DNA from: an uncultured Gammaproteobacteria bacterium
Lineage (GTDB): Bacteria > Patescibacteriota > Microgenomatia > PFEM01 > JAPLYW01
Assembly (NCBI GenBank): GCA_965230945.1
Contig: OZ246397.1
Span: 438,284-502,283, forward strand
Reading direction: 5' to 3'
Length of the DNA stretch: 64,000 nucleotides
Shown: positions 2,421-61,300 of the stretch, one piece after another
Position numbering within the stretch: the stretch's first letter is position 1
Layout: every line of letters starts with the position of its first letter
Translations under genes and position numbers: made by a program
Notes under the pieces: generated by a model
The model's database searches: none
What the model was told of the DNA's origin: nothing
What the model saw: the letters and a program-made list of their open reading frames with translations, nothing else

Positions 2421-4748
2421 ATGGAACAATCAAGAGCCCTAATTTCTAATCTTCAGCAAGGGGTACTAACCTTAATAATTGCACTGCTAGTCTTGATCGC
2501 TTTATTTATTTTAAGCTATATTTTTGTTTTATGGTGGCGCCATCATACAAGAGAGGAAAAATCGCTAGATTATGTTTTACTTCAGGTAGTTGTTCCTTTT
2601 GATAATGAAATTAAGATTGATGCGGCTGAACAGATGTTTGCCTCCTTGTTTTCTATAAAAAAAGGAGGTGTGTTAAGTTTTTTGCGCTTACAACCTCATA
2701 TTACCTTTGAAATTGTCGCCAAGCATGAAGATATTCGTTTTTATGTTTCTGTACCTTCCAGGTTAAAGGATATGGTAGAAAAGCAGATAAATGGGGCTTA
2801 TCCTGATGCTGAAATTTTAGAAGTACCAGAATATAATCTTTTCTCTGAAGATGGCAGGGTTGCTTTTACGGAATTTAAGCTAAAAGAATCAGCTTACTAC
2901 CCCATTAAAGTTTACAAAGATTTGCCTACTGATCCGCTTTCTTCCATAACTACCGTTTTGGCTAAGATGGGGCCAGAGGAAGGAGCGGCTATTCAGATTT
3001 TGCTTTCTCCGGCCGATAAAAAATGGCGAGTAGGTGGCAGGGATTATATAGCTGGGATTAAAAAAGCAGAATCAGATCTTAGTAAGGCTAAATTTAAGGT
3101 TGATGCTAAAGCTCTTGAAGCTATTGAAAATAAATGTAGCAAGCCTGGCTTTAGCACGGTCATAAGAATTGTTGTTTCTTCGCCGAATGAAAGAATGGCT
3201 AAATCTCATCTGGATAATATTAAGTCTGTTTTTGAGCAGTTTTCTTCTGACCTAAATCGTTTTGGCAAAAGGAGAATTTGGTGGAAGACTGGTTTTATGG
3301 TTGATTTTATTTACCGTTATCAGCCGATGTTTAGAAATAAGACGATCCTTAATTCTGAAGAGCTGGCTACCGTTTTTCATTTTCCCAACAAACAGGTGGA
3401 AACGCCCCATATCCATTGGCTTTATTCTAAAAGAGCCCCAGCCCCGATTAAGATTCCTAAAGAAGGTTTATATTTAGGTAAAAGTACCTATCGGGGAGTA
3501 AGTAAACCCGTTTATCTTTCTGATGATGATCGACGTCGCCATCTTTACATTATTGGCAAGACAGGGACAGGGAAAACAGAAATTTTAAGAGATTTAATTC
3601 TTCAAGATATTAAGGCAGGAAGAGGAGTTTGCTTGATCGATCCTCATGACTTAGCAGAAGATTTGTTGGCCTATATTCCCCCTGAGCGAGCTGAAGATGT
3701 TATCTACTTTGATCCTTCAGATACGCAAAGACCGATGGGATTAAATCTCCTTGAGGCCTATGATGAAGAACAAAAGCATATGGTTACGACCGCAATTATC
3801 AACTTAATGTATAAACTCTACGATCCTTATAAAACTGGTATCATCGGGCCTCGTTTTGAACATGCCATTCGTAATGCTATGTTGACGGTGATGAGCGAGA
3901 AAGGAAGTACCTTTATTGAAGTCGTTCGCTGTTTGACTGATGCTAATTTTGTTCAAGAATTACTGCCTAAGGTTAAAGATCCAATTATTCGCAGATACTG
4001 GACTGATCAAATTGCCCAAACTTCAGATTTCCATAAATCAGAAGTTCTTGATTATATTGTTTCTAAGTTTGGTAGGTTTGTGACCAACAAAGCTATGAGG
4101 AATATTATTGGCCAGTCAAAATCAGCTTTTGATTTTCGTAAAGTTATGGATGAGGGTAAAATTTTAATTATTAATCTGGCTAAAGGTAAGATTGGTGAAG
4201 AGAATTCTAGCTTTCTAGGGTTGGTGCTTATTCCTAAGATTTTGGCAGCGGCTATGTCTCGAGCTGATGTTCCTGAAGAGCAAAGAAAAGATTTCTATTT
4301 ATATGTTGATGAGTTTCAGAATTTTGCCACTCCTGATTTTGCTCAAATTCTTTCTGAAGCCAGGAAGTTTCATCTTAATTTAACGGTAGCCAATCAGTTT
4401 ATCGGTCAGATGGATGAAGAGGTTAAAAACGCGGTTTTTGGTAATATTGGCAGCTTAGTTGCTTTTAGAGTGGGGGTTACCGATGCTAACTATTTACAAA
4501 GAGAATTCCAGCCAGTTTTCGGTGAAGATGATCTTTTAAATATTGAAAGATTCCATGTTTACATTAAAACCATTGTTAAGAATGAACCCGTGCCTGCTTT
4601 TTCTATGGAATTAACTAAAGATATGGAGCAGATGAAAAAACTAAGAAATCCAAAATTAGCCGAGATGATAAAAGAACTTTCCAGATTAAAGTATGGGGTT
4701 GATAGAGAAGTAATAGAAGCTGAAATTAACCAGCGCGCTAGACTTTAA
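2421..4748 (+). CDS. Membrane-anchored FtsK/HerA/VirD4(TraD/TraG)-like P-loop ATPase (type IV secretion / DNA-translocation-type coupling ATPase family)
   Basis: N-terminal TM helix (LTLIIALLVLIALFILSYIFVLWW). Walker A is YIIGKTGTGKTE and Walker B is LYVDEFQNFAT. The protein is clearly paralogous along its whole length to ORF 40695-42872. Confidence 0.6.
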   Translation: MEQSRALISNLQQGVLTLIIALLVLIALFILSYIFVLWWRHHTREEKSLDYVLLQVVVPFDNEIKIDAAEQMFASLFSIKKGGVLSFLRLQPHITFEIVAKHEDIRFYVSVPSRLKDMVEKQINGAYPDAEILEVPEYNLFSEDGRVAFTEFKLKESAYYPIKVYKDLPTDPLSSITTVLAKMGPEEGAAIQILLSPADKKWRVGGRDYIAGIKKAESDLSKAKFKVDAKALEAIENKCSKPGFSTVIRIVVSSPNERMAKSHLDNIKSVFEQFSSDLNRFGKRRIWWKTGFMVDFIYRYQPMFRNKTILNSEELATVFHFPNKQVETPHIHWLYSKRAPAPIKIPKEGLYLGKSTYRGVSKPVYLSDDDRRRHLYIIGKTGTGKTEILRDLILQDIKAGRGVCLIDPHDLAEDLLAYIPPERAEDVIYFDPSDTQRPMGLNLLEAYDEEQKHMVTTAIINLMYKLYDPYKTGIIGPRFEHAIRNAMLTVMSEKGSTFIEVVRCLTDANFVQELLPKVKDPIIRRYWTDQIAQTSDFHKSEVLDYIVSKFGRFVTNKAMRNIIGQSKSAFDFRKVMDEGKILIINLAKGKIGEENSSFLGLVLIPKILAAAMSRADVPEEQRKDFYLYVDEFQNFATPDFAQILSEARKFHLNLTVANQFIGQMDEEVKNAVFGNIGSLVAFRVGVTDANYLQREFQPVFGEDDLLNIERFHVYIKTIVKNEPVPAFSMELTKDMEQMKKLRNPKLAEMIKELSRLKYGVDREVIEAEINQRARL

Positions 4749-4792
4749 GCCTTCAAATTTGATAAAATTATATTTGACTTCCTTTAGATTTT

Positions 4793-4864
4793 GGGCCTGT
4801 AGTTTAACGGTTAAAATGGGATTCTTATAAAGTCCAGTAGAAGGTTCGACTCCTTCCAGGCCCA
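4793..4864 (+). tRNA. tRNA with anticodon UAU (Ile, AUA-decoding type)
   Basis: Manual cloverleaf: acceptor GGGCCTG/CAGGCCC; D-arm gttt-aacggtta-aaat with G18G19; anticodon stem ggatt/agtcc with loop cTTATaa (U33 present); T-arm gaagg-TTCGACT-ccttc; discriminator A. Confidence 0.55.
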
Positions 4865-4941
4865 CTCTAGCTTTTTTAATTTTAGACTTTGGTGTTTTAA
4901 TAGTCTTGACTCTTTGGGTTTCTTTCGGATAAAATAAGCTT

Positions 4942-6132
4942 ATGGAAAAGATACAGCGTCCTTTGGCTGATCGTATTCGTCCCCGAAAACTTGCTGAATT
5001 TGTCGGCCAGGAACATTTGGTGGGCAAGAAGGGGTTGATTCGTCAACTGATTGAGTCTGACCAAATTCCTTCAATGATCTTTTGGGGACCTCCAGGATCA
5101 GGAAAGACAACTTTGGCCCGAATTATTGCCGAAGCAACCCAAAGTCACTTTTTGTATCATTCAGCTGTGGCCACTACCCTTAAGGATGTTCGTGAAGCAG
5201 TTGGGGCGGCAAAAGAAAGACTTCAGGCTTACAACAAAAAAACGATTTTCTTTTTAGATGAAATTCATCGTTTTAACAAAGCACAACAAGATGCCTTTTT
5301 ACCTCACGTTGAAACTGGTACGATAATTTTAATTGGGGCGACAACGGAAAATCCTAGTTTTGAAGTCATCGGGCCCTTGCTTTCTCGGAGCCGTGTTTTT
5401 GTCTTAAACCAACTTTCAATTGAAGAATTGAAGATGATTATTAAAAGAGGCCTGAAGGAATTAAAGGTGACCATGGAACCAAAAGCACTTCAGCTTCTGA
5501 TGGATTTAAGTAATGGCGATGCACGAGTATCCTTAAACGCGATTGAGATTGCCGCTTCGACTTTGAAAAGAAAGAAAAAGATAAGCTTTTCCTTGATAAA
5601 AGATGTTTTCCAGAAAAAATCTCTTTTTTACGACCAAGGAGGGGAAGAACATTACAACACTATTAGCTCTTACTTGAAAAGTATGAGGGCTAGTAATGTT
5701 GATGCCGCTTTGTATTATCTTGCCCGTATGGTTGAGGCAGGGGAGGACCCAAAGTTTATTGCCAGAAGAATGGTGGTATTTGCTTCCGAAGATGTAGCCT
5801 CTCCAACTGCTTTAGTGGTCGCTAACGCTGTTTTTAGAGCCTGTGAAACTGTAGGCTACCCAGAATGTCAGGAAAACCTGGCTGCTGGTACTGTTTATCT
5901 TGCCCAAGCTCCTAAAGACCGTAGGGCTTATAACGCTTATATGAAAGCCTTGGATGATGTCAAAAAATTTGGCAACCTTCCCATTCCTCTTAATTTAAGA
6001 AATCCTGTCACAAAATTGATGAAGAAAGTAGGATATGGGAAAGGATATAACAAATATACCAAAGATGATTTACTACCAGAGAAATTAAAAGGTAAAAAGT
6101 ATTATAAGGGTAATGATAGTAGCAGTAGATGA
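4942..6132 (+). CDS. rarA: Replication-associated recombination protein A (AAA+ ATPase RarA/MgsA)
   Basis: N-terminus LADRIRPRKLAEFVGQEHLVGKKGLIRQLIESDQIPSMIFWGPPGSGKTTLA is the RarA signature with Walker A; length 396 aa. Confidence 0.85.
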   Translation: MEKIQRPLADRIRPRKLAEFVGQEHLVGKKGLIRQLIESDQIPSMIFWGPPGSGKTTLARIIAEATQSHFLYHSAVATTLKDVREAVGAAKERLQAYNKKTIFFLDEIHRFNKAQQDAFLPHVETGTIILIGATTENPSFEVIGPLLSRSRVFVLNQLSIEELKMIIKRGLKELKVTMEPKALQLLMDLSNGDARVSLNAIEIAASTLKRKKKISFSLIKDVFQKKSLFYDQGGEEHYNTISSYLKSMRASNVDAALYYLARMVEAGEDPKFIARRMVVFASEDVASPTALVVANAVFRACETVGYPECQENLAAGTVYLAQAPKDRRAYNAYMKALDDVKKFGNLPIPLNLRNPVTKLMKKVGYGKGYNKYTKDDLLPEKLKGKKYYKGNDSSSR

Positions 6133-7096
6133 AACAGGTAGTTTTAATGAAAGCGGTTCTTTGGAATACGGCTTAGTTACTCTTGTTACAGTTACAGACA
6201 ATGAATGGAAGAAGTTCGTAAGACTAATGGATGGGTTATATCCTAATGGCTGGAAAGAAATAAAAGGAACAAACATTACAATTGAGAACCGGCAAAAAAT
6301 CTTAAAATATATTGGCAAAAAACAAGAAATTAGATACACTTCATTCCTATGTGATTTAACACCTGGTACTGATTCGTGGGTTAATTGGCATAAAAACGAA
6401 CAAGTTAAAAAAGTTGAGAAGTCAATTATATTGGTTAAAGAAAAACAAGGACACCCAAACCTAATCAGAGAATTAGAGTTGATTAGAAACCAAATCCGTA
6501 ACCAATCTGTAGGTGATTATTCCAAGTTTATAATGATTTTTGAGCTGTATGTTCAATGGCAAAGATTTTTCCAGTTTGACTATGTCTTTACTCATCCTAC
6601 TAATGACAGTTGGGAAATAAGACACATAGTAGATACACAAAATAAACCAGATAAGTTTAAATGGCTATTAAAAAGTATGTTGAATTTAACTACCAGTGAG
6701 CTTAACCCAGATTATGGAATCTTTTCTCCAAAAGAATGGCCAGCCAGTCATCCGTTCAATAAAATATATGGGGTGGAAGGACAGACTCATAGATTAAATG
6801 CTAAGCTGTTTTATAAAAACTTTAAGATTGGCAATGAGCTTCAAGATTTAGAATTGTTACTACCAGATTTAATAGGAAACTCTATCCATAAATCAATTAA
6901 ACACAGTAAGAATAAATCGTGGTTAAAATTGTTAAAAAGGTTGAAAAGCAACCGTTCTTTAACCATTACAAATAAAGTTTATGGTAACAATCATCAGTAT
7001 TATTTAATTAGAGGCTTTGACAGATTACGCTCCAAAAAATCTGTTAATCCAGTCCTAAAAGAGCATTGTCTATTGATGTCAAAAATACAAAAATAA
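6113..7096 (+). CDS. hypothetical protein, possibly DUF3800-like
   Basis: N-terminus MIVAVDETGSF resembles the DESG start of DUF3800 proteins; otherwise unrecognised. Overlaps the rarA stop by 20 nt. Confidence 0.35.
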   Translation: MIVAVDETGSFNESGSLEYGLVTLVTVTDNEWKKFVRLMDGLYPNGWKEIKGTNITIENRQKILKYIGKKQEIRYTSFLCDLTPGTDSWVNWHKNEQVKKVEKSIILVKEKQGHPNLIRELELIRNQIRNQSVGDYSKFIMIFELYVQWQRFFQFDYVFTHPTNDSWEIRHIVDTQNKPDKFKWLLKSMLNLTTSELNPDYGIFSPKEWPASHPFNKIYGVEGQTHRLNAKLFYKNFKIGNELQDLELLLPDLIGNSIHKSIKHSKNKSWLKLLKRLKSNRSLTITNKVYGNNHQYYLIRGFDRLRSKKSVNPVLKEHCLLMSKIQK

Positions 7097-7261
7097 AAAT
7101 AGTTTTTGATTATTGAGGCTGGAAATGAGATTGAGAAATCCATACAGGTATATTATTCTAATTAAAGTGCGGGTATGTGGTAATATAAAAAGGACAATAT
7201 GGTGAAAAAGATAGTAGTTAGTTTAAGGAAATGAGAATAAAGGAAAAATTTTGAGGCAATA

Positions 7262-7729
7262 ATGAAACAAAGACCTATTTTAGGCAAAGATATTCCGTGG
7301 AGTGTTATAGATGGAGAGCTTTGCCGTGTTATACGGTTTACTCCTTTTGCAAAGATAGAAAATAAAAAAGTTCGGGCAGTTGCTTCATATACACCATATG
7401 CTTTCCTAACAGTGGAGTGTAAAAAATTTAAACAGAATGCAGACTTATGGGTTACACATAAAATAGATTTTATAAATCTTTCGGAAGCCTTTGGGCAAAG
7501 AAAAATAAAAGATGGAGAGGAAGTACTGATTATTTGGTCAGTCAATCATTATAAATATAAATTGTACAAAATTTTCTCCTTTATTTTTCCAAAGATATGG
7601 GTAATGATTTGTCCCAAAAATGCCTATGAAATAGAAACTAATCCAAATTTCCGACCGGAATTGACAGGTGAGGCACGATTTTTAGCATTCAGACCCATCA
7701 AAGAGTGGGAGCCAGAAGTAATGGGTTAA
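7262..7729 (+). CDS. hypothetical protein (155 aa)
   Basis: ORF only; an alternative antisense ORF 7162-7545 overlaps it, so the coding strand is uncertain. Confidence 0.3.
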   Translation: MKQRPILGKDIPWSVIDGELCRVIRFTPFAKIENKKVRAVASYTPYAFLTVECKKFKQNADLWVTHKIDFINLSEAFGQRKIKDGEEVLIIWSVNHYKYKLYKIFSFIFPKIWVMICPKNAYEIETNPNFRPELTGEARFLAFRPIKEWEPEVMG

Positions 7730-7971
7730 AGAATTCAATTTTTCTTAAATTCCCGCAAAAACTAGTCCGAACATCGTCCACAATAGGGAGCTGGGAATTT
7801 TGAGCTTTTTTCGTGTCCTGATTATTTCCTGCTCAAAATCTTTATTTTTCTCAAGAGCCTTGATCAAGTAATAGTAAGATGTGTCAAGAACGCCCTGTTG
7901 TAAAGAGCTTTCACATCAAAAGAAGGATTGAAAAAAATAGAAACTTAGTTTCTAGACAAACCGGAGAAAAT

Positions 7972-8000
7972 AACCCCGAAAGGGGTTGTTTTTTTTATTT
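7972..8000 (+). terminator. Rho-independent terminator (aaccccgaaaggggtt + T-run)
   Basis: GC hairpin AACCCCGAAAGGGGTT followed by TTGTTTTTTTTATTT. Confidence 0.5.
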
Positions 8001-8139
8001 AATAATTATTGATGCTAGCTATTGAGAAAAGTTAAGAAGAGAGAAGAACCATCAGAACATCAATTCTAAGGTTTTGAGAGGTCATTAGACGAGGCTGAGT
8101 TTTGGTTCTAAAGACCTTAAAAATCCGAGAGGTAGTAAG

Positions 8140-8550
8140 ATGGACATGATAACCTCCAAGTGGTATATAATAAAGAAAATGGCTGAAAAAAAGAAAGAAA
8201 CATTTAAGTTCTATATGTCTGAGGGAGAACTTAAAAAAGCAGGCACTTCTTCTTCTGAAGTCTTTGAAGCTTTTTTTGGAAAAAATAAGAAAGAGGGTAA
8301 AGCAATGATGCTTATAAGCTGGCTAATTATTTCAGTGGCTTTAATCTCGGTCTGGGAGGTATTGCTACGTATCATCCCTGAAGGATGGGCTTTGGTTCCT
8401 GTAAATATTTTCTGCTTCCTGGCAAGTTTTACGATTGGAGCTTTCGGTTATTTGCCAGCATTTCGTCAGTGGATGAAACCTCTATTAGCTTGGTTCTGTG
8501 CTTTAGCATTATGGTTCCTAGTATTTGTAGTTGTTCGTAGTCTATTTTAA
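8140..8550 (+). CDS. hypothetical membrane protein (3 predicted TM)
   Basis: ORF with hydrophobic helices; first of a co-directional run of five small ORFs. Confidence 0.4.
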   Translation: MDMITSKWYIIKKMAEKKKETFKFYMSEGELKKAGTSSSEVFEAFFGKNKKEGKAMMLISWLIISVALISVWEVLLRIIPEGWALVPVNIFCFLASFTIGAFGYLPAFRQWMKPLLAWFCALALWFLVFVVVRSLF

Positions 8551-8629
8551 AGCTTAAAAAAGGAGGCCAAACTAATTTTGATGATTGTAAGAATATCGCG
8601 ACTTACAAGGTGGGAGAGAAAGAGTTGTA

Positions 8630-8869
8630 TTGAGTATGGCTAAAAAAGTTACCATCATTGCTTTAATAATCGGTTTAGCTTTTTTGGCCTACTGGTTTCA
8701 ATATAGGCTACAAAAACTAGAGGAAGCCTCTAAATTATTAAAAGAAACCTTGGGGGTTTGTGAAGTTGTGCCGAAGGCATATGATAGATATATGCCCACT
8801 ACCAAAGGTTATGAAGATGAACTTGATAGGTGTGCCAACACTTATATTAAGCTAAAAAACAGATTATAG
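8630..8869 (+). CDS. hypothetical small protein with N-terminal TM helix
   Basis: ORF preceded by AAAAAGGAGG; single TM followed by a soluble tail with 2 Cys. Confidence 0.35.
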   Translation: MSMAKKVTIIALIIGLAFLAYWFQYRLQKLEEASKLLKETLGVCEVVPKAYDRYMPTTKGYEDELDRCANTYIKLKNRL

Positions 8870-8920
8870 GAATTTTTAAAAGGAGGCTCAAGCCTTGAGG
8901 AGGAAGGAGGTGAAAAAATT

Positions 8921-9451
8921 ATGAGAAAGATTTTAGGGTCACCTTTTAAAATTCTGGACATTAGAGGATTTTTTATGAATAAGATTTTTGCCTATATAGA
9001 TTCTCATATCATTTGGGTTGTTATTGTGGCTCTAATGTTTTGGTTTGCTGGATGGTTTGTTTCTGGTTTTCCTCCACTTGGTCTCTTATTCCTTGTTGCT
9101 TTTGGGATTTACTTTTTTAGAGGGTTCAGGCGTGAGATGAAGGCGGGCATCCAAATCCAGCGTACAAGATTTATTCATACGGGTGTTGTAAAATTCATCT
9201 TATTCCTTTTTTTGTTTTTTGTCCTATCCGGAATCGCAAAAATAATAATGCTATTCACCTTATGGACGTTTGTTTGGATTGGTAGAGGGGCAGAAGTAGC
9301 AGACGAGGCCGTAATGCATAATCAAAAACTAGTGTATGGCCAAACAGACATTTTCATCGCATTGCCAGTTGTAGTAATTTTGACATTGCTGTACCTGCGA
9401 TACTTAAAACAAAAGAGGTCGGCAGAAGAATTGAGTGTAGGCAAAAATTAA
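8921..9451 (+). CDS. hypothetical polytopic membrane protein (about 4 TM)
   Basis: Strong SD (GGAGGAAGGAGGTG) 8 nt upstream of the ATG; hydrophobic segments. Confidence 0.4.
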   Translation: MRKILGSPFKILDIRGFFMNKIFAYIDSHIIWVVIVALMFWFAGWFVSGFPPLGLLFLVAFGIYFFRGFRREMKAGIQIQRTRFIHTGVVKFILFLFLFFVLSGIAKIIMLFTLWTFVWIGRGAEVADEAVMHNQKLVYGQTDIFIALPVVVILTLLYLRYLKQKRSAEELSVGKN

Positions 9452-9475
9452 CACATTTTAACCGCTGGGTTTTAA

Positions 9476-9952
9476 TTGATTTTATGTCGGCTAGAATTAA
9501 AATCAGAATTATTGAAAAATTTAATGAATATACTATATATTACAAAAGGTATTATCGGGGGGTTTTTATTAAAAATATTTCCTTCCTGGGGCCCTAAAGG
9601 CGTCATAGATACACAAATTATTGTTTATAATCGTCTAAAAAGAAAGTTTCCTAAGACGTCTGAAAACGATATATTAAATTCTCTTATAATGTCCAGAGTA
9701 AAAGCTTCTCCACGTGTCGCTTCCTTGCAAAACGAATATATTCATTACGAGTTGCTTTTGCAAAATCCCGATAAAACACTTGAAGATGTAATTTGGGAGA
9801 TAATCAATTATGAATATTTTGAAAGCAGAAAGGATTATTTGAAAAAGAAAATTCCTTCTAAGACCCTAATAGAAGCTAGATTAGAAGCGAAGCAATATAT
9901 AAAGAATAAAGTTACAAAAATAAAAAATGAGCAAAGACTTAATAAAATATAA
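9476..9952 (+). CDS. hypothetical soluble protein (158 aa; start may be a downstream Met)
   Basis: ORF only. Confidence 0.3.
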   Translation: MILCRLELKSELLKNLMNILYITKGIIGGFLLKIFPSWGPKGVIDTQIIVYNRLKRKFPKTSENDILNSLIMSRVKASPRVASLQNEYIHYELLLQNPDKTLEDVIWEIINYEYFESRKDYLKKKIPSKTLIEARLEAKQYIKNKVTKIKNEQRLNKI

Positions 9953-10268
9953 AAATATTGCTTCTGTAATATCAATCGTAATGCTCCTCTTGGCTATACC
10001 TACTTTTTGGCCTTACGGATATTACATTCTTTTAAGATGGATAATAACTGCCAGTGCTTTATTTTTAGCTTGGATTGCATACGATTTAGAGAAAGTATTG
10101 TGGGTGGTCTTGATGGGCTTGGTGGCTATATTATTTAATCCTCTAATTCCCATTCATCTAGCCAAATCAGGTTGGGTTCTTATTGATTTTGTATCAGCTA
10201 TTCTTTTCTTTTTAGCTGCCTATTCTATAAAAACTATAGCCCACAAGCATAGCGGAGAGGAAGAATGA
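9927..10268 (+). CDS. hypothetical membrane protein (3-4 TM)
   Basis: ORF with hydrophobic helices; overlaps the previous ORF by 26 nt. Confidence 0.35.
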   Translation: MSKDLIKYKNIASVISIVMLLLAIPTFWPYGYYILLRWIITASALFLAWIAYDLEKVLWVVLMGLVAILFNPLIPIHLAKSGWVLIDFVSAILFFLAAYSIKTIAHKHSGEEE

Positions 10269-10423
10269 GTAAAAGAACAGCAAGCGGGAAAAAGCCAAGA
10301 AAATAGTACAACAACCTTTTTGACAAAATTATCTAACTTTATTCAAGAGGGAAAAAATATTTAAAGCAAGAGACGATGGGTGGCAGGACAGTAAGGTAGA
10401 AAATTTACCACCCATCGATTGGC

Positions 10424-11146
10424 TCATTCTAAATTTATCTTTTTAAAACATCTAAGACCGTTTTTATCGGTTCCCGCTTCAACAAAATCTTCAAAGATAA
10501 CCGGAATAACTTCCTTAAGTTTCATAAGTAAATCTCCCGTTACCTGACGGATTTCCCAATGAGCTGCTTTTTGAGTACGCATTTCAAAGATATGTCGCCA
10601 TTGTCTAAAATTGGCAGTAACAACAATATCAGCATTAATGGCGATAGGAAGTATTTGCCGAGCGTCTTCCGGAACCCAACCAGCTTTTCTCAAACCTCGA
10701 TAATACATCTCCACCTTATGCAGCATATCTACCATTGACATTCGTGTATCGTCCTCAAGTAGAACAACTTCATATGCGTTTTTATGAGGGGGTACAGTAC
10801 AATGTAGCTGGAACTTTTCTAAATCAACTTTTTTACCCGCGTAGTCAACATATCTCGTTGATTCCTGAGAGAAAGCACAGATGCGATGTCGAACCATTTC
10901 GTGAGTAAAGCCACGGGAAACGTCAAGGAACTTTACACTTAATGTAGAGTGCTCGATTACGCTTTCATGACCTCTTTTAATAACCGTCCTGATGAATCTA
11001 TTTGCCGATTCTTCGGTAATTTTATTTTTTTCAGAACGATAACAAGTTCTACCTGCGCTTTCCAGCCTTAATAGTTGAGCCTTAAGTTCACTTTCCGATG
11101 TAAGAATAACAGAAAGGCCTCTTTTTACAACTTCCATTACCATCAC
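10424..11146 (-). CDS. thyX: Flavin-dependent thymidylate synthase ThyX
   Basis: ThyX motif RHR-x7-S is present (HEMVRHRICAFSQESTRY); length 240 aa. Confidence 0.8.
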   Translation of the reverse strand: MMVMEVVKRGLSVILTSESELKAQLLRLESAGRTCYRSEKNKITEESANRFIRTVIKRGHESVIEHSTLSVKFLDVSRGFTHEMVRHRICAFSQESTRYVDYAGKKVDLEKFQLHCTVPPHKNAYEVVLLEDDTRMSMVDMLHKVEMYYRGLRKAGWVPEDARQILPIAINADIVVTANFRQWRHIFEMRTQKAAHWEIRQVTGDLLMKLKEVIPVIFEDFVEAGTDKNGLRCFKKINLE

Positions 11147-11273
11147 TCCCTTTCAATTTTTAAATTAATGAGCCAATGGAGCAATTATAGCACTTCCTGC
11201 AAATGTTTTTTAATTTTGAGATAATTCTAGTAAAAGATTTGAGGATTGGTTGTTATCAGCTCAAGAAGTAAGC

Positions 11274-12137
11274 TTAAAGTTCTTCTATTTTGATTTTCTT
11301 TTCTCCGGTTTCTTTAATAAGATCAAGATATTTTTCCGTGGTAGAGAGACGTTTATGACCAACTAGTTTTTGGATAAGAACTACAGAAGCTCCATTGGCT
11401 AGTTGGTGGGCAATAAAGGTGTGTCTGAGATCATTGATAGTCGCATCTTTAATTTCCGCTTCTTTAAAATAACGGCCAACAATAGTGCGAATGTTTCTGA
11501 CCAGAAATGGTCTTCCAGTTTTAGTTATAAAGATGTTTTTGGTTTTAGTTTTAAGCCTGAATTCCAACCAGCGTTCTAGTGATTTTTTGGCTGATTGGTT
11601 CAAGACGATAGCTCTTTCAGGTTGAGATTCATAAGCTTTAATTTTAAGTTGATTGTCTTTAAAATCAGCAAGTTCTAATCGAGCGAGTTCTCCAATACGG
11701 ATACCGGTTTGAAGCAATAATTCAACGACAGTGGAGATGCGGACATCATTACGGACAGCATCTCTTAAAGCTCGGTATTCCATCTGACTTAGAATTCGAG
11801 GAGGTTTAGCTTCATAACTAGGATATGTGATTGATTCAGCAGGATTATTGTCAATGATATTTTGGCTATTTAAATATTTGAAAAAAGACTTGATTGAATT
11901 AAGTTTTCTGGAAGCTGATTTAGGTAGATATTTATTGTAATTAAGGTATTCTTTAAAGTCTTCAATATGTTCAGGGGTAATAGAAGTTGCTTGAGTAATT
12001 TGTTTTTTACCCAAAAATTCAATAAACTGACTAAGGTCATTGCCATATGCTAAAATAGTAGAAGACGATTTACCTTGTTTTTTTAAAAAGTCGATAAATT
12101 TTTTATAGGCAGTATTCAGAGATTTATCATCAGCCAT
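11274..12137 (-). CDS. Tyrosine site-specific recombinase, XerC/XerD family
   Basis: N-terminal SAM-like segment (ILAYGNDLSQFIEFL) and a C-terminal catalytic region with R...H..R...Y arrangement (LRHTFIAHQL...GHKRLSTTEKYLD); 287 aa. Confidence 0.75.
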   Translation of the reverse strand: MADDKSLNTAYKKFIDFLKKQGKSSSTILAYGNDLSQFIEFLGKKQITQATSITPEHIEDFKEYLNYNKYLPKSASRKLNSIKSFFKYLNSQNIIDNNPAESITYPSYEAKPPRILSQMEYRALRDAVRNDVRISTVVELLLQTGIRIGELARLELADFKDNQLKIKAYESQPERAIVLNQSAKKSLERWLEFRLKTKTKNIFITKTGRPFLVRNIRTIVGRYFKEAEIKDATINDLRHTFIAHQLANGASVVLIQKLVGHKRLSTTEKYLDLIKETGEKKIKIEEL

Positions 12138-12230
12138 AGAAGCTTTGAGGGCAGCGTTAAAATAATATTACCTAATAGCAATCCGCTATAGGGTAATCCT
12201 ATAATAACACCTGGAAGGCAACCTGTCAAT

Positions 12231-12605
12231 ATGTCAAATAAAAAGTTAAACTTACTTATACGCAGCAGGCTAGTTCAGATAGTAATTATTTTTATCGGTA
12301 TTGGTCTTATAGTCAACTTGTCAAAGGATATCATAGGGCTTTTAAAATCAGCTGGGGAATTAAAGCTAACCGAGCAGAGGGTAGGGGAGGTAAAGGAAGA
12401 AACCCTTAGCCTGAAACAAAAGAAAGAATATTATCAATCAAATGAATTTATTGAAGAAATGGCGAGAAATAAACTTAATATGGCCAGAGAAGGAGAAACG
12501 GTTGTTATTCTACCGCCAAATATAAAAGAAGTTTTGGGTTATCAAGAGTCTACTCTTCCTGAGTATATTCCCAATTGGAAACAATGGTTTAATCTATTTA
12601 GGTAG
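12231..12605 (+). CDS. Septum formation initiator family protein (FtsB/DivIC-like)
   Basis: N-terminal TM, then a coiled coil, then FIEEMARNKLNMAREGETVV resembling the FtsB/DivIC C-terminal motif. Confidence 0.5.
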   Translation: MSNKKLNLLIRSRLVQIVIIFIGIGLIVNLSKDIIGLLKSAGELKLTEQRVGEVKEETLSLKQKKEYYQSNEFIEEMARNKLNMAREGETVVILPPNIKEVLGYQESTLPEYIPNWKQWFNLFR

Positions 12606-12652
12606 TAAAGCTTGTTCTAGATTCGTTTTTTTGATAAAATTACTTTATGATA

Positions 12653-12926
12653 TGCGGGGTAGTGTACGGCAGCACGTGAGGCTCGTTTAAAATTGGGCCC
12701 TCTAATAGGTAACTATTGAGAGTGCACTCGGCTATATCGGTGAAACCCTACTGTAACTAGAGGGCAATACCGAGGGAACCCTAAAAATATTAGGGACTCT
12801 GTAGAGACTACACGCCGAGCATCCTGAATTTATTTAGGATGAAGATATAGTCCGACACTTTGAGTAATCGGAGCAAACAGTTTGCATAATCTCACAGACC
12901 GGGTTCAACTCCCGGCCCCGCAACCA
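12653..12926 (+). tRNA. tRNA(CAU) (elongator Met or Ile2 type) interrupted in the anticodon loop by a group I intron; exons 12653-12683 and 12885-12926
   Basis: Exons fold as acceptor tgcgggg/ccccgca, D-arm gtgt-acggca-gcac, anticodon stem tgagg/tctca with loop c-U33|CAUaa, T-arm ccggg-TTCAACT-cccgg, discriminator A and encoded CCA. The 5' exon ends in U and the intron ends in G. Confidence 0.6.
12684..12884 (+). ncRNA. Group I self-splicing intron (about 201 nt, ORF-less) inside tRNA(CAU)
   Basis: Contains group I R-like CTGTAGAGACTACACG and S-like GAAGATATAGTCCGAC elements. Boundaries are U|intron...G|exon. Size and host gene resemble the minimal Azoarcus-type tRNA intron. Confidence 0.6.
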
Positions 12927-12928
12927 AA

Positions 12929-13000
12929 GGTAGGGAGTAGACTGGTGTCTTGGAACGTTTCATAAGCGTTTTTTAGTGGGTTCGACTCCCACCCCTACCA
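12929..13000 (+). tRNA. tRNA with CAU anticodon (second copy; D-arm atypical)
   Basis: Acceptor ggtaggg/ccctacc; anticodon stem aacgt/gcgtt with loop ttCATaa; T-arm gtggg-TTCGACT-cccac; discriminator A. The D-arm is short, so this call is less secure. Confidence 0.45.
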
Positions 13001-13003
13001 CAA

Positions 13004-13029
13004 CCACTTCTAAAGGGAGTGGTTTTTTG
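13004..13029 (+). terminator. Rho-independent terminator after the tRNA pair
   Basis: CCACTtctaaagggAGTGG hairpin followed by TTTTTT. Confidence 0.5.
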
Positions 13030-13046
13030 TTAAAATAGTCCCAAGT

Positions 13047-14027
13047 ATGGCTGAAAAAAGAGTTTTTTCAGGAATTAGATCAAGTGGAAGACTGCACATT
13101 GGTAATTACTTTGGGGCAGTTAAGGGAATGCTTGCCTTGCAAGACACTCATGATTGTGTCTTTGGAGTGGTGGACTGTCATGGTATAACGACACCCTTTA
13201 ATCCTCAAAATATGCAGAAAGAAATAAGGGAAGTCGTTTTAGATTATTTAGCTGCTGGTCTTGATCCAAAGAAATGTCACTTAATGATTCAATCTCAAGT
13301 ACCCGAGCATATAGAGCTTTCTTATTTCTTTGCTACCATTTTTCCTGTGTCCAGACTTGAGCAGCTGCCTACTTACAAAGAAAAAAAGATTGAAAATCCA
13401 AACTATGTTAATTTAGGGCTTTTGTATTATCCGATTTTAATGGCAGCAGATATTTTAATTTACAAAGCAGATAAAGTTCCTGTAGGAAAAGATCAATTGC
13501 CTCATATTGAATTAACCAGAGAAGTGGCTAGGAAATTTAACTCTATGTTTGGAAAAATATTCCCTGAACCCCAGGCTTATCTGACCAAGGGTGCTTTAGT
13601 CCCATCTTTACTAGGAGAAGGTAAGATGAGTAAATCGCTAAAAGGGAGCTATATTTTGTTAACTGATGATTTAAAAAGTGTTAAAGAGAAATTAGCTAAG
13701 GCTCCCACTGATAGGGGTTTTGGTAAAAGTATTCCAAAAGAAGGCGGCGTGGCTAACTTGCTATTCTTCGTTGAACTTTTTATGGGTGAAAAAGTAAGAA
13801 AAGAATACGAAAAGCAGTATTTAAGTAAGGGAATTAAATATTCAGAACTTAAAGAAAAACTAGCAAAAGCTGTTTTTGAGGCTCTTCAACTAATTCAAGA
13901 GAGAAGGAGATATTTTGAGGATAGGCCTAAATTGGTTGATGAGATTCTAGAAGAAGGAAGAATCTATTGTTCAAAGCTTGCCAAAGGGACTCTTTTAGAG
14001 GTTAAAAAAGTCATGGGTTTGGTTTGA
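13047..14027 (+). CDS. trpS: Tryptophan--tRNA ligase
   Basis: Class I aaRS motifs: the HIGN-type motif in SGRLHIGNYFGA and KMSKS in GKMSKSLKGS; 326 aa. Confidence 0.9.
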   Translation: MAEKRVFSGIRSSGRLHIGNYFGAVKGMLALQDTHDCVFGVVDCHGITTPFNPQNMQKEIREVVLDYLAAGLDPKKCHLMIQSQVPEHIELSYFFATIFPVSRLEQLPTYKEKKIENPNYVNLGLLYYPILMAADILIYKADKVPVGKDQLPHIELTREVARKFNSMFGKIFPEPQAYLTKGALVPSLLGEGKMSKSLKGSYILLTDDLKSVKEKLAKAPTDRGFGKSIPKEGGVANLLFFVELFMGEKVRKEYEKQYLSKGIKYSELKEKLAKAVFEALQLIQERRRYFEDRPKLVDEILEEGRIYCSKLAKGTLLEVKKVMGLV

Positions 14028-55378: not shown

Positions 55379-58300
55379 CTATTTAATTGTTACTCCTGAA
55401 ACACTTACTCCGCTGAAATTAATGTTGCCTTGACTGTAATCTACTGTTAGTGTACCACACCATTCAGAATTCCCGTTGTCACTGTTGGCCCTAATTCGGT
55501 ATTGGTAGGTATATTCAGAGGAGGTGGTATTATCAGTAGAGGAAGTGCTATCAGCGTCTTCAGTGGTTAAAAGAGTATAAGCTCCACCATCGACACTTCT
55601 TTCCACCCGATAACCAGTCTCCAGACTGGTATTATCATTCCATTTGACGATTGTTTGGTTAGGTTGACTGCCGTCATCAATCATGCAGCCCGTAGGAGCG
55701 TAAATTTGACTCATGGTAAAGTAAGCAGACTCTGTACTCCAGGCCCCCTCTTCACCTCCGTCATCCCAATATTTAATACGCCAATAATACGTAGCCCCCC
55801 ATTGTAGATCGGTGCTTGCTCCTCCATAGGAAATATCGGTACAGCGATCACCAGCTGTGCAAGTGGGAGAGAGGGAAGTTTTGTCAGAATCCCAAAGTGT
55901 AGAGCCAAAAGCTGAATCATCATCAACCTGAATTTGATAATAATCAGCAATATCGCCAGTATCGGTATCATTATAAATTGCCGAAAATTCAGGGGTGGTA
56001 TCAGTTACCCCTGTGGGGTTAGTTTGCCCTTCGGTTAATAAAGAAGTGGGGGCCAAGGGGGTATAGTTGACGGAAAAAGTATTGGTTCCTGTACTCCAGG
56101 GGCTTTCCGCACAATCATCATCAAAAAATTTAATTCGCCAATAGTAAGTAATTCCGCCGGTTAAAGCTGATCCTGCATAAGAAATATCAGCACAGCGAGT
56201 TCCTTGATTGCAATTCGTCATCGAAGTTCCTGAAGCCCCTGAATCCCAAATCGGTGAACCAAATTCAGAATCGTCATCTACTTGAATGCGATATTTATTG
56301 GCAATATCATCGCTATCAGGATCATTATAAATAGCCGAAAATTCTGGTTCAGTGTCGGGAACTTGACTGGGATTGGTTTGCCCTTCAGTTAGCAAAGAAG
56401 TAGGAGCGGTTGGGGTTTGGTTCTCGGTGTAATTTAAAGTGACACTCGTGAGAGAGGGAGAAACGGTGGTATCGTTAGTTGTTAAAATAGCTCGATATTG
56501 GAAGTATCTTTGAGGAGTAGAGGAAATGGTGGAGCCAGTTGGGTCTGTCATATAGGTAGAATTAGATCTAAAGTCGTCCAAATACATATCAAAACCTTCT
56601 GAACCATCAAGAACTCTAATGCCTAGTTTGGTAATCTCATCTCTGTCATCAGTAGAAATATCAGTAATATCCCAATACTCTCTTTGCCACTTAAAGACAT
56701 CAGCATTGGTTGAATAACCAGAAGAAGGAGCGGTACCGCTCCAAGAAGAAACAGTTACCAAACCTGAAGAAATAGAAGTTACTTCACCTTGCATAATATA
56801 AGTGGTACCATCAACATTTTCTCGAATGATAACTGTATCGCCGGTATATAAACCAGTTACACTGTCAGGTGTAAATTCATAATTAGAGGTTGAGGTTGGA
56901 CCATCTGAACCTGCGGTAGTAGCATAATCAACCGAAATCTGGTGAGTTCGTAACCCATATTGATAAGCCTGTCTGATTTCATCAGCCGAACGGGTAGTAG
57001 TGTTGGAAATGCGGACTTCGTCGATGGTGCCCTTAAATTGACTGGCACCAATGGTTAGGGGGTTATCGTTTGTTGCAATTGTGACGGATCTTGAAGCGGT
57101 GTTTTTTAGTTCACCATTTACATATATGGAAAGGGTTGTACCGTTGTATGTCCCCGCTACATGATACCATTCTCCAATATTTGGTGTTACATTACTATTT
57201 ACTCGTGGTTCGTAAGAACTGCCGTCATAAATAAAAAATTCGAAATCGTCACCACCTCCACTAGAAATTCTGATAAAATATGATCCCAAACTAGTTCCTT
57301 TACTGATAAGGTATTCATAAGTAGAATGGCTACTTATTTTAACCCATAATTCAATAGATAAATTTCCAGTGATATCTAGACTTGCCGAATCTGGTACGTT
57401 TATATAGTCACTATCACTAGCAAAACTCCTCGCCTTGCCGATTTTTCCTTGAGTAAAGGTTGTCCCGGTTGGGGTTCCATGGTTACCATTACTAGAAGAA
57501 TCTTTAATATAAGCTCCAGAGCCGGATTTTTCATCCAGATGCCACAGGCTGACGGTGCTAGCATCGCTTCCATAAACCGAATGATCAGTTTCACCGACAT
57601 ATGTTTCAAGATATGTCCCTGGTCTATTTGCCGCTACATAAAAAGGAGCTTTGTTTTTAGAAGATAAGTCAGTTGAAGTTAGAGTTCTGGAAAGACGATG
57701 GTCTTTTCCTGCTCGATAAGCTTCAGCAATTTCTTCGGCGGTGCGAGCGACATTGGAAATACGGACTTCGTCAACTTGACCATCGTGGTATCCATAGGAT
57801 CCACCCCCAATTTGATAAGGGGCATAAACGGTCGTCTTTGGTGAGGTGAGTCCAGTCCTGACAAGAGTTCCATTAAGATATATGGAAGGAGTTTTGTTAT
57901 TATAAACAATTGCTAAATAATTCCACCCAGATGGAACAGTTCCGTTATAGACTGCCAAGGGGGGCATATAAGCACTTCCATGTTCATATACAGAGATACC
58001 ATTAGTGCCAACAGATACGCCAGCTCCACTGTTAGTACCTTCATTAACGGCTCCAAATAAATATTTTTGGCCTGAGATTCCAGTAGTTGAGGTTGTACTT
58101 TCTGCATCAATTTCGTGAGTGCTATTGGCTGTAAACCATGCAGAAAAAGTAAAGGTATTCGTGGGTCGATTTGTTGTTCCAACAGTAATGATATCACTAC
58201 TTCCATTAAAGCTCCTAGCTTTTCCATAGAATCCATCTACTACTGTTGTTCCAGTTGGCGTGCCATGGTTGACGTTGGCAGTGGCATCTTTAATATAAGC

Positions 58301-61300
58301 TCCAGTGCCTGAAGTTTCCTCCATATGCCAAAGAGCAACGGTATTACCATCTACTTGCGGGGCTCCGACAGTGGATTTTAAAGAGCCATTACCCTCCATT
58401 TTAATGGTTGATTCGTCGGTTTTAGTAAGAGTGTTGGAGTTTGATGTAGACCAATTAGTAGCGTCTGAATCCATGCTTAAAATAGTAGTTTCGTTGCTTA
58501 TTGGTTTCCATTCTTCCCAAGTAGAATTATTGGCTGAAGTTCTGGTTTGAAATTCAATATCCGCCCCTAAGCCAGCCGTTGGTTCAGGAGAGGTATATTT
58601 GCGGACTATAATCCTATCCCAATCAGTAGTGTAACTTTGACCGTTATAAGAATCACTATCGTATCTTCTTCCTAATGCAATTGGTTCACTAGACACAGTA
58701 TTAGTTAAATCACCAACATTCCAATAAGTTGAATTCAAATCTAAATTATACATATTTAAATTAACCGTAGAAGAATCTTTTACCTTTATAGTGTAAAGCA
58801 TATTATTAGCTGGCGTTTCGTCATCTTTATTCATCCAGCTTGAGTCATTTCTATAGTAAGCATTACCTGGGTGATTTAACCATCCTATACTATTACTTGA
58901 AGATAGATAAAATCCCCCTATCATCTGACCATTAGTTGCTAAACTGGTTGACTTTGCTTTAATCTCCTGAATAATGCCTGAAGAAAAGGTGGATATAGAA
59001 GTTAATCTACCGGTTGTATTTGTGCCGTGCAGATAGCCGCCGGAAACACTAAAACCAGTACCATCTGTTATAGTCCATTTAGTGGTGTCAATAGAATCTC
59101 CCAAGAAATCATCAAAAAACTCAAAAGTTGCACCACCATCTGAACCCGCACTAGCCCCTGAATTTCCATACCACATAAAAATCGTTGTTTTACTTGAAGC
59201 AGTGATAGAGTCTACTTCCACCCAAACTTCTGCTTCCACGCCGTCTGATTTTTCTTCTATCCAATAATCAAGATTGGTTCCGGCAGAGTTGGTGAACTTC
59301 AAATCATCAAAATCACTTTGCATATTAGAGTTATAGGGAACAGTCAATTTTACTTGGTAATTAGTTAAGGTGTTTGAATTTTGAGAATTATCAATAATTA
59401 CTGGCTTGACTTTGGTCCAGCCATCTGGAGTTGAAGGGGGAGTAATTGATTCTGTCCATTGGAGAGAATCAAGACTAGCCACAGATGTTCCTAAATCAAT
59501 TGATTGGGAAGTATAAACACCATAAGGTCTTTTTTGAGCATCTAATTTGATTTCTTCAGGAGTTCGAGCGGTGTTGGAAATACGGACCTCATCGATGGTG
59601 CCATTGAAAAAGTAACTTCCACTCCCATGTGCACCTATAATTGATGTTCCCGCAGGATTAGTTATTAAAGTTTGAGAATACGACTTAGATGCAGCTAAGG
59701 TACCATTTACATAAACTGCCTTTGTACTACCGTTATATGTACAAGCAACATGATTCCATTGATTATTCTTAAAATAGCTGCTAGTAGTAAAACTAAGATT
59801 ATCGCTATTAGAAGATGTATTATATGTGCGGAAATAAAAAGTATCTGTCGCTGCAAAAAAACAGGAATACTGAGTATTTACAGAGCCGTTTGTTGTTTTT
59901 TCAAATATAAACATATTTCTATTAAAATTATCTGAATAAACCCAGGCTTCTATTGAAAGATTCTGTAAATCAAAAGAGGAAGATGCTGGCAATAGAATAT
60001 AATCACTGCTCCCATTAAAACTTCTTCCGGCTGCTCCTAATTTTTGAGTGGTAGTAGTGATGGTGGTGCCAGTGGCTGTGCCGTGATTGCCATTGCCGGA
60101 AGAATCACAAGCATCCTGTCCTTCAGAGCAGCTGTCATTAACTGTTTCATTCATATGCCAAAGGCCAACGGTATGAAGATCAGCTGGTGATTCTTGTTCG
60201 TAAAGTTCAATCGAAGGACCAGTGTCAATTGTGGGATATCTAACAATTACTATACCAGAGCCACCATCGCCACCTTTAGTACCAGGATTACCGCCGCCAT
60301 TACCACCGCCGCCGCCGCCAGTATTAGCAACGCCATTAGTATCTGCTGAGTTTCCGTATCTATATCCATCACCGCCACCACCTTGTCCGCCAGTTCCAAG
60401 TGTGCCTGGAGGACCAGTAAAAGCTGAACCACCACCGCCACCCGCAAACCAGCCAGAAACCCCTACGGATGTCCCGAAATAACTTGACATGTCAACACCT
60501 ACGCCACCATCACCACCAGCTCCTTTAGCAGCATTAGCACCAACAGCACCTGCACCACCACCACCACCAGCAGCAAATAGCCGCCAGTCTGTATCGGTGA
60601 TACCATTACCACCATTATATCCCTGTCTTGGGGGTCCAGCATTTCCAGCGCCACCAGTTCTGGTACCCGCATTACCAGCACCACCACCTGAACCGCCAGC
60701 ACCACCATCGCCATAACTACCAGCACCACCGCCCTCTGCGGTTATATTATCAAAGACAGAGTTATCACCTTTAGTACCAGCTGCATCATCACCACCACCA
60801 CCACCAGCCCCAACGGTTACGGTTAGTTCACTGCCTCGTGTTACGTCATGGTCTGTTTCGTATAAAAGTCCACCAGCACCACCGCCACCGCCAGTATTAT
60901 TTGTGTGATGTCCACCGCCACCGCCACCAGCGACAATTAATACATCTACTTTTAAAGGAATATTTGTCGTAAATGTTCCATCACTTGTAAAGGTATGAAT
61001 GGTATAGCCTTCGGAATAGGTAATTGTTCCTCCTGTTACAAAATTACCAACATCTTTAACTCGATTTAGCTGGCCGCTGGTAAAGTCAGATTGCTCATCA
61101 TGGACAATTGTTGGATCAATAATAACAGGGTAAAGAGCAGTTTTTAGCCAGTTAACATCAGGATTAAAATGAGCATAGTATTGAATAGGTTGTGACTTTT
61201 GACTGAGAGTAGAGGAGGAGGTAATAGTTAAAGGAATATTATTACTTCTATTGTTTCCAGCGTCAATCATGAATGGTTTTTCGAAGTGGAAGCGATATTC

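Follow-up and report, generated by a model that had tools for sequence, protein, structure and literature searches.

Within a 64-kb stretch of genome from an uncultured ultra-small Microgenomates bacterium of the candidate phyla radiation (CPR; Patescibacteria), hereafter called the window, we analyzed the block of genes that lies between rarA/mgsA (positions 4942 to 6132, plus strand) and the tyrosine recombinase gene xer (11274 to 12137, minus strand). The anatomy of the locus, the presence and absence of its genes, their synteny and the contexts of their homologs make it likely that this region is a flexible islet between two convergent and conserved genes, and that no site-specifically integrated element is present. 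DNA in this slot would have been gained, lost, and replaced piecemeal, with illegitimate recombination as the most likely route of turnover, and its present content would be a mosaic of three independent transcription units. The first would consist of orf327, translationally coupled to rarA, followed by orf155, and would end at an intrinsic terminator; the second would comprise five small genes encoding four membrane proteins and one helical soluble domain; and the third would be thyX, transcribed from its own promoter.

This reading is carried by a comparison with sibling genomes that was anchored on RarA, covering 80 loci from species-representative genomes (relatives from Microgenomates, Shapirobacteria, Woesebacteria, and similar lineages), and to which a search for orf327 homologs added assembly GCA_964490965.1 (L083). 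The arrangement in the window itself was read on three independent assemblies, the same sequence being found as Joint Genome Institute contig Ga0111034_1133771, a Logan contig, and a 615-kb NCBI contig. In the closest sibling (L003, RarA 85% identical), the gene order is DUF8128, tRNA-Ile(UAU), rarA, 32 nucleotides (nt), xer on the minus strand, divIC, two tRNA-Met(CAU) genes, trpS, and ftsH, with no gene between rarA and xer. In L083, rarA is followed by orf325 (92% identical to orf327 and with the same rarA overlap), 260 nt, a 119-amino-acid (aa) gene (orf119) encoding a zinc-ribbon/transmembrane (TM) protein unrelated to the window genes, and then xer on the minus strand with the same right flank. 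The interval in the window holds orf327, orf155, 410 nt of noncoding DNA, five small open reading frames (ORFs), and thyX, about 5 kb altogether. All ORFs listed in the preliminary description, which was made from the sequence alone, are present where it placed them, and its view of the block as accessory is borne out, as everything from the rarA 3′ end to the xer stop codon varies with respect to the two closest siblings.

The limits of the variable DNA can be read from blastn alignments. The window aligns with L083 up to position 7101 and with L003 up to 6107, within the last rarA codons; in both cases the alignment starts again precisely at the stop codon of xer (11274). The orf327 start lies within the last approximately seven rarA codons, which are not the same as in the sibling lacking orf327; over its length, RarA (assigned by Pfam families) is 84 to 85% identical to its sibling counterparts. 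Together, synteny and break points confine the variable DNA to the rarA–xer interval and mark the tRNA genes, rarA, xer, and divIC as core, with a hairpin terminator directly 3′ of xer common to L003 and L083. In L003, the rarA end (…KKTNP*) runs directly into what in L083 is the terminal sequence of orf119 (…KKPT*), so that L003 derives by deletion from a state like that of L083; the nucleotide-identity tree is ((L003, L083), window). In a more distant relative (L180/L181, RarA 62%), rarA forms a tight operon with genes of 246 aa, 325 aa (orf325), and 220 aa, in that order, and the linkage of rarA and orf327 is therefore old. Since orf327 is shared with one sibling and, within the rarA operon, with this more distant relative, it is older than the rest of the block, and the part specific to the window is 7102 to 11273.

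The preliminary description had likened the block to a degenerate integrated element bounded by tRNA genes, with a recombinase facing the tRNAs, and this does not hold. The two tRNA loci have the same place in the gene order of the siblings, and the break points lie elsewhere, at 6107 or 7101 and at 11274. On the left, tRNA-Ile(UAU) (4793 to 4865, plus strand; ARAGORN and Rfam) is a conserved flank and no boundary of variable DNA, being located upstream of rarA in the window and in L003 (9912 to 9985), and a tRNA occupies the same place in the related locus L084 (542 to 614). On the right, xer is 85 to 86% identical and has the same neighbors in L003 and L083. Because it is present and syntenic in both siblings, including the one whose rarA–xer interval is empty, the recombinase is the chromosome's own Xer, not the integrase of an element, and is unconnected with the block. 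A search for repeats over 4600 to 13200 recovered no att-type direct repeats matching tRNA 3′ ends, the only tRNA-related repeats being a generic similarity between T-arms (16 nt, 88%) and, ahead of both tRNA loci, a promoter-like 13-mer. Conservation of the block in related genomes together with missing att repeats and a chromosomal Xer had been named as grounds for abandoning the integrated element; the repeats are indeed missing and the Xer is chromosomal, but the block itself varies among relatives.

Searches for mobility, phage, and defense genes in the block agree with this picture. PADLOC gave no matches at E ≤ 0.1 for the nine proteins of the block, and PHROGs gave only chance-level matches for those besides ThyX and Xer (E = 0.03 to 0.065). 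For orf327, orf155, orf136, orf79, orf176, and orf158, Pfam returned nothing, PHROGs and NCBIfam returned chance-level matches only (E = 0.007 to 0.065), and PADLOC returned none. No relative was found in scans of IMG/VR viral contigs with orf327, orf155, the orf136 core, orf176, and orf158, nor did tblastn of orf327 and orf155 against phage records yield a match. A tRNA-bounded integrated element is rejected by sibling synteny, absent att repeats, and boundaries away from the tRNAs.

The five codirectional small ORFs (8140 to 10268) are real genes, as had been proposed, with homologs for four of them and coding signal. A 3-periodic Markov model detects in-frame coding signal for orf79 (the best score among the small ORFs), orf155, orf176, orf158, the DUF6804 ORF, and the N-terminal extension of orf136. 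The 81-aa core of orf136 scores ambiguously (−0.207 in frame versus −0.154 in another frame), and its status as a gene rests on homologs. Hydropathy predicts 3 TM segments for orf136, 5 for orf176, and 4 for the DUF6804 protein, which agrees with the earlier count of three polytopic products, as well as one N-terminal segment for orf79 and none for orf158. The strong AGGAGG Shine-Dalgarno sites ascribed to the whole run are present for orf79 and orf176 and not for the rest, being located in just two spacers (8561; 8881, 8898, and 8905), the latter three all ahead of the orf176 start at 8921. We also observe two mini-ORFs, 8581 to 8643 (20 codons, ATG) and 8895 to 8924 (9 codons, TTG), each 8 to 14 nt behind an AGGAGG and reaching or overrunning the start codons of orf79 and orf176 (at 8921 through an ATGA overlap). 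They could encode leader peptides or reflect translational coupling.

Each of the small genes has its own distribution. The first, orf136 (8140 to 8550, plus strand), encodes a 3-TM protein whose last 81 aa (8305 to 8550, motif IPEGWALVPVNI) form the family core; this core has 16 homologs of approximately 81 aa, also with 3 TM segments, at 56 to 75% identity in unrelated contexts and GC backgrounds, and the N-terminal extension occurs in this genome only. It is followed by orf79 (8630 to 8869, plus strand; gene-caller start 8636), which carries one N-terminal TM anchor and, like orf155, is a singleton cluster at 90% identity. Next, orf176 (8921 to 9451, plus strand; approximately 5 TM segments) has four homologs at 69 to 82% identity, which start at its second Met (8975, giving 158 aa) and each lie in a different neighborhood, with a DUF6804 gene directly after the homolog in one of them (L170). 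The ORF named orf158 (9524 to 9952, plus strand; 142 aa from the ATG at 9524) encodes a soluble domain of 130 aa, all helical, for which 58 representative clusters were found at E ≤ 1e-3. Elsewhere this domain is often fused to 1 to 4 TM segments, in one case with a TM2 domain; its AlphaFold2 model has a predicted local distance difference test (pLDDT) score of 89 and no significant fold match in the PDB. The TM tails of these fusions were considered as relatives of orf136, orf176, or the DUF6804 protein and show no similarity to them. Finally, the end of orf158 overlaps the start of the gene for the DUF6804 family protein (9927 to 10268, plus strand; 4 TM segments), which matches PF20619 with E = 2.2e-22 and 79.5 bits against a cutoff of 27, over 88 of 91 profile positions.

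That these five ORFs make up one operon-expressed membrane system, be it toxin/immunity, holin-like, defense, transporter, or sensor, strikes us as improbable. Their layout speaks for it: they are codirectional and closely spaced with Shine-Dalgarno motifs in two spacers, orf158 shares 26 nt with the DUF6804 gene, and the run is flanked by hairpins. So do the succession of an orf176 homolog and a DUF6804 gene in an unrelated contig and the fusion of the orf158 domain to TM segments in approximately 10 longer relatives. However, homologs of orf136 and orf176 stand alone in at least six different neighborhoods without the other members, and the 80 ThyX loci, the 80 RarA loci, and the other fetched loci lack the set, apart from the source contigs themselves. 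The N-terminal extension of orf136 is lineage specific, no Pfam toxin or holin match and no PADLOC match was obtained for the set (none at E ≤ 0.1), and PHROGs matches are at chance level (E = 0.046 and 0.065). With homologs scattered over unrelated neighborhoods, the defense, toxin/immunity, or holin-like system of the preliminary description gives way to a view in which the small genes would be individually conserved "orphan" envelope proteins that form no fixed system. They are not a recurring cassette, and the data suggest at most pairwise links, between orf176 and DUF6804 and between orf158 and a membrane partner; orf158 with DUF6804 and orf176 with DUF6804 may work in pairs. In a genome of 48% GC content (L172/L173, 8001 to 9877), an 81-aa homolog of the orf136 core adjoins a true DUF3800 gene (PF12686), a tyrosine-integrase fragment, FRG, and DUF4917. 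An orf136-type protein is thus found a second time near a DUF3800-type gene, possibly by coincidence.

Behind the small genes lies thyX (10424 to 11146, minus strand; gene-caller start 11137), an intact gene for a flavin-dependent thymidylate synthase. The earlier identification as ThyX is confirmed by PF02511 (E = 1.4e-46, 159 bits against a cutoff of 24.8) and TIGR02170 (147.2 bits against 87.9) and by the ThyX motif RHRxxSxxxS, present as RHRICAFSQES from residue 86. The gene has its own promoter-like site (11213 to 11184), and a hairpin separates it from the convergent DUF6804 gene, in the form of a perfect 10-bp inverted repeat, CGATGGGTGG/CCACCCATCG (10374 to 10417), that probably serves as a bidirectional terminator. 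A metagenome scan with ThyX returned 80 loci. All of the eight closest homologs (67 to 79% identity) have tmk upstream and/or rsmI downstream, and two longer contigs among them continue with oxoacid:ferredoxin oxidoreductase, Nramp, and LexA, while no tmk, rsmI, or other such neighbor is present in the window. The best phage ThyX matches do not exceed 45% identity, and the identity of thyX to its closest homologs, 76 to 79%, is within the range of other core proteins between those genomes (64 to 87%). Instead of the phage- or island-borne gene suspected before, this is a CPR chromosomal gene outside its conserved tmk-thyX-rsmI context. Given these homologs and the distance from phage ThyX, we conclude that the gene belongs to the lineage itself and reached the slot by relocation or duplication; that it is the organism's CPR-type thymidylate synthase, moved here out of the ancestral tmk-thyX-rsmI locus rather than being a second copy, is what we infer. 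The closest ThyX loci lack xer, and the idea of the small ORFs as a thyX-linked cassette was dropped, none of them being found at any of the 80 loci.

On the other side of the small genes, the window-specific segment opens with orf155 (7262 to 7729, plus strand), encoding a soluble hypothetical protein. It was called by the gene callers on the source contigs and has no Pfam, PHROG, PADLOC, or NCBIfam match and no viral or phage relative. The preliminary description had placed 1 kb of low-coding DNA with a strong terminator here; the terminator stands, but half of the stretch does not qualify as low coding, since orf155 has coding signal, and the noncoding part is the 410-nt spacer from 7730 to 8139. 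The spacer contains an inverted repeat (fold z-score −2.4) that provides an intrinsic terminator on the plus strand, with the hairpin CCCCGAAAGGGG (arms 7967 to 7977 and 7982 to 7992) followed by a T-run to approximately 7998. Rfam gave no match on the spacer, and its short ORFs have poor coding scores.

The gene coupled to rarA, orf327 (6113 to 7096, plus strand), overlaps the rarA stop by 20 nt, is translationally coupled to rarA in three lineages, and encodes a protein with a predicted DUF3800/RNase H-like fold. It has 31 homologs, none with a Pfam domain, and the few that are named by source are all CPR (Collierbacteria, Andersenbacteria, and Microgenomates). Residues D6, E7, D156, and P251-D252 are invariant in the alignment. 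The AlphaFold2 model (pLDDT 92, predicted template modeling score 0.91) has its only significant Foldseek matches, in BFVD, to an uncharacterized siphovirus protein (E = 2.5e-4) and a phage protein annotated as DUF3800 (E = 1.7e-3); the top PDB match, RNase HII, is not significant (E = 0.11). DUF3800 proteins are described as RNase H2-like, with N-terminal DE and C-terminal QxxD motifs (PMC7736814). At the sequence level, the label "DUF3800-like" given to this ORF in the preliminary description fails: PF12686 does not match the window protein at E ≤ 10 and matches only 1 of 28 family members, at E = 1.1; hhalign of the orf327 family against one DUF3800 protein (from L172) gives a probability of 0.1%; and a PDB profile search with the family returned nothing. 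At the level of fold and motif, it is reasonable, moderately so, because of the Foldseek matches and the invariant DE and C-terminal Asp. Judging from the predicted fold and the conserved acidic residues, orf327 is probably a nuclease.

DUF3800 has been linked to type VII retrons, Cas12a2/a3 loci, mobile genetic elements (MGEs; PMC13594972), and nearby structured RNAs. For orf327, we found no associated retron reverse transcriptase or cas genes, and with respect to a DUF3800-type structured RNA, a lead from Weinberg 2017, Rfam gave none in the window, L084, L087, or L089, the single-sequence folds of the downstream spacers being unremarkable with nothing shared among them. The protein is more conserved than RarA (92 versus 84% identity to L083; 69 versus 62% to L180), which points to unusually strong constraint or to exchange among lineages. 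Its relatives at 67 to 69% identity are preceded by a 246/247-aa partner in L180 (4787 to 7144) and L182 (531 to 2232), the partner proteins being 80% identical and without a Pfam match; in L180, the rarA-246-325-220 operon is overlapping, and the partner is absent from the window and L083. PADLOC searches of six neighbors of orf327 homologs gave nothing at E ≤ 0.01 for five and a chance-level Cas5 match (E = 0.0053) for the sixth. One might speculate, with little confidence, that orf327 is an undescribed and strongly conserved DUF3800/RNase H-like branch (CPR only where named) that is functionally tied to RarA and perhaps acts at stalled forks or as a standalone defense or anti-MGE nuclease. 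As a separate part of the same speculation, a new small envelope module may consist of the orf158 helical domain with DUF6804 and orf176.

Some observations weigh against the flexible-islet reading. The comparison comprises only two close siblings and one more distant relative. The block has the lowest GC content of any 5-kb stretch in the window, which would fit a foreign origin too. In addition, orf327 homologs elsewhere lie near restriction-modification genes, PIN_12, Trypco2, an Omega repressor, and a large serine recombinase, and with such neighbors a mobile or defense history is possible for this gene.

An alternative is that a mobile element (a genomic island or a prophage) inserted itself in or beside rarA and then decayed, losing its integrase and att sites, so that the block is its remnant, with orf327 and the small ORFs as surviving cargo. 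It would explain why the block is absent or different in siblings and why its GC content (0.345 versus 0.380 for the window) is the lowest among 118 sliding 5.1-kb windows. The orf327 relatives at 67 to 69% identity lie near MGE-type genes (a helix-turn-helix gene, Omega repressor, and DUF5659 in L180; a 582-aa large serine recombinase in L182), the conservation of orf327 above that of the flanking rarA is compatible with exchange between lineages, and DUF3800 proteins are described as frequently associated with MGEs and defense systems (PMC13594972). On the other hand, the block contains no integrase, repeats, or phage, plasmid, or conjugation genes. Three genomes show three states with differing left break points, one of them a simple deletion. 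The composition check suggested earlier gave a split result, with deviating GC content and ordinary tetranucleotide usage (18 of 118 windows at least as deviant), and thyX appears vertically inherited and CPR-like. Standalone MgsA_C-like proteins, encoded a few kilobases from orf327 homologs in L180 (11962 to 12303) and L182 (5028 to 5636, followed there by small ORFs and the large serine recombinase at 9125 to 10873), were considered as displaced rarA 3′ ends, and thus as an integration scar, and discarded: at 22% identity to RarA and 46% to each other they are a separate family. All in all, we regard a remnant of this kind as unlikely and prefer the flexible islet.

The Xer protein itself has a SAM-like N-terminal domain and a catalytic domain (Pfam), confirming its identification as a tyrosine recombinase. 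Its best solved relative is XerA (5HXY, E = 3.6e-28), and it carries the catalytic Arg (GIRIGEL) and Tyr (EKY) as well as GH and the LRH motif. At residue 235, the His of HxxR is replaced by Asn (INDLRH, versus HVLRH in XerA and XerD), as it also is in L083. All NCBIfam equivalog scores are below cutoff, including that on the XerA/"integron integrase" model NF040815. The exact abutment of the variable DNA on the xer stop codon in all three genomes and the sub-cutoff NF040815 score could be taken to mean that the adjacent Xer captured this DNA, by insertion of an integrative mobile element exploiting Xer (IMEX) at a dif-like site or as an integron-like cassette platform, but this is very improbable and largely refuted already: the junctions (7090 to 7270 and 11140 to 11280) contain no inverted repeat or dif-like site, no attC-like repeat family occurs between the ORFs, where the only hairpins are the terminator at 7967 to 7992 and that between DUF6804 and thyX, the variable DNA lies at the xer 3′ end, whereas in integrons the cassettes are found upstream of intI, the GC skew stays positive throughout 1 to 56 kb, placing the locus away from the skew switch expected for dif, and L003 differs from L083 by a plain deletion. 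Lacking junction inverted repeats and any change of skew, the dif/IMEX and integron-like versions are both without support.

Further along the right flank, outside the block, divIC (12231 to 12605; Pfam) is followed by two tRNA-Met(CAU) genes on the plus strand, the "tRNA(CAU) pair" of the preliminary description, which proves to be two genes, the first of them split by an intron. This first gene (12653 to 12926) contains a 201-nt group I intron (12684 to 12884; RF00028, 87 bits) between U33 and C34; the spliced tRNA has 73 nt, folds cleanly, and differs by 1 nt from the intronless genes of both siblings. The intron is absent from L003 and L083 and hence polymorphic among close relatives. Group I introns are known from CPR tRNA genes (PMC8172020). 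The second gene spans 12929 to 13001 (tRNA and Rfam searches). Neither CAU tRNA has a GGG:CCC anticodon stem. The conserved tRNA-Ile(UAU) suggests that it is this tRNA that reads AUA, instead of a CAU tRNA modified with lysidine. The identical 13-mer TTTGATAAAATTA is found at 4758 to 4770 and 12630 to 12642, approximately 10 to 22 nt upstream of each tRNA locus; its first copy overlaps a promoter-like site (4739 to 4768) with a TG-extended −10 element, and the motif is probably the tRNA promoter.

Two further observations concern other parts of the analyzed DNA. Between orf325 and the 119-aa gene of L083 (its positions 11070 to 11240), a near-consensus extended −10 element (TGCTATAAT) precedes a predicted 5′ leader with a three-way junction and a perfect 8-bp closing stem (CAGCUGGG/CCCAGCUG), to which two more pairs can be added across mismatches. 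The leader is without a match in Rfam and has a single-sequence z-score of only −1.5. Far from the block, a 2,155-aa ORF of the window (55379 to 61846, minus strand) coincides with the strongest tetranucleotide deviation, and GC skew drops to zero and then becomes negative at the same ORF.

The outcome is mainly corrective. A recombinase beside tRNAs and a set of unrecognized ORFs give the locus the look of an island, whereas the siblings show a core Xer and a plain variable slot; it is an ordinary islet, and current understanding is unchanged by these findings. It does provide a concrete case of gene turnover in reduced CPR genomes at approximately 80% nucleotide identity, with three states at one locus and one traceable deletion junction. 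The locus also offers an essential gene of nucleotide metabolism, thyX, outside its conserved tmk-thyX-rsmI context, a group I intron polymorphism in a tRNA-Met gene, a well-modeled DUF3800-like family that is unrecognized by Pfam and coupled to rarA, and three highly conserved, unannotated small families, namely, the 81-aa IPEGWALVPVNI family, the 158-aa orf176 family, and the orf158 helical domain.

Compared with known systems, the locus shares with tRNA-targeting islands and prophage remnants the nearby tRNAs, a tyrosine recombinase at one edge, accessory content, and lower GC content, but here recombinase and tRNAs are core, att duplication and mobility genes are lacking, and the boundaries lie elsewhere. 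Its Xer resembles chromosomal single-Xer systems (archaeal XerA; XerC/D) in architecture, catalytic motifs, and conserved synteny, and departs from them in scoring below the equivalog cutoffs, in carrying Asn235 for His, and in having no recognizable dif near the gene. ThyX passes the model cutoffs, carries the motif, and is 67 to 79% identical to chromosomal CPR-type ThyX encoded next to tmk; unlike those, its gene stands alone on the opposite strand in the rarA–xer slot and not beside tmk or rsmI. With DUF3800 (PF12686), orf327 shares the invariant N-terminal D-E that matches the DE motif, the invariant D252 in LPDLIG (with a nonconserved Q position, as in retron VII-A2 proteins), viral fold matches that include a DUF3800 protein, and RNase HII as its best PDB match; it differs in failing the family's hidden Markov model, in its larger size of 327 aa with long helical inserts, and in having only CPR homologs among those named by source. 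The closest likeness is to flexible genomic islets, the "hot spots" of pangenomes. No integrase, tRNA target, or repeats were found at the locus studied here, and its status as a hot spot rests on three states in three genomes, but it has in common with such islets the syntenic and conserved flanks, differing content, one empty site, a cargo of small hypothetical and membrane proteins, and a slightly lower GC content.

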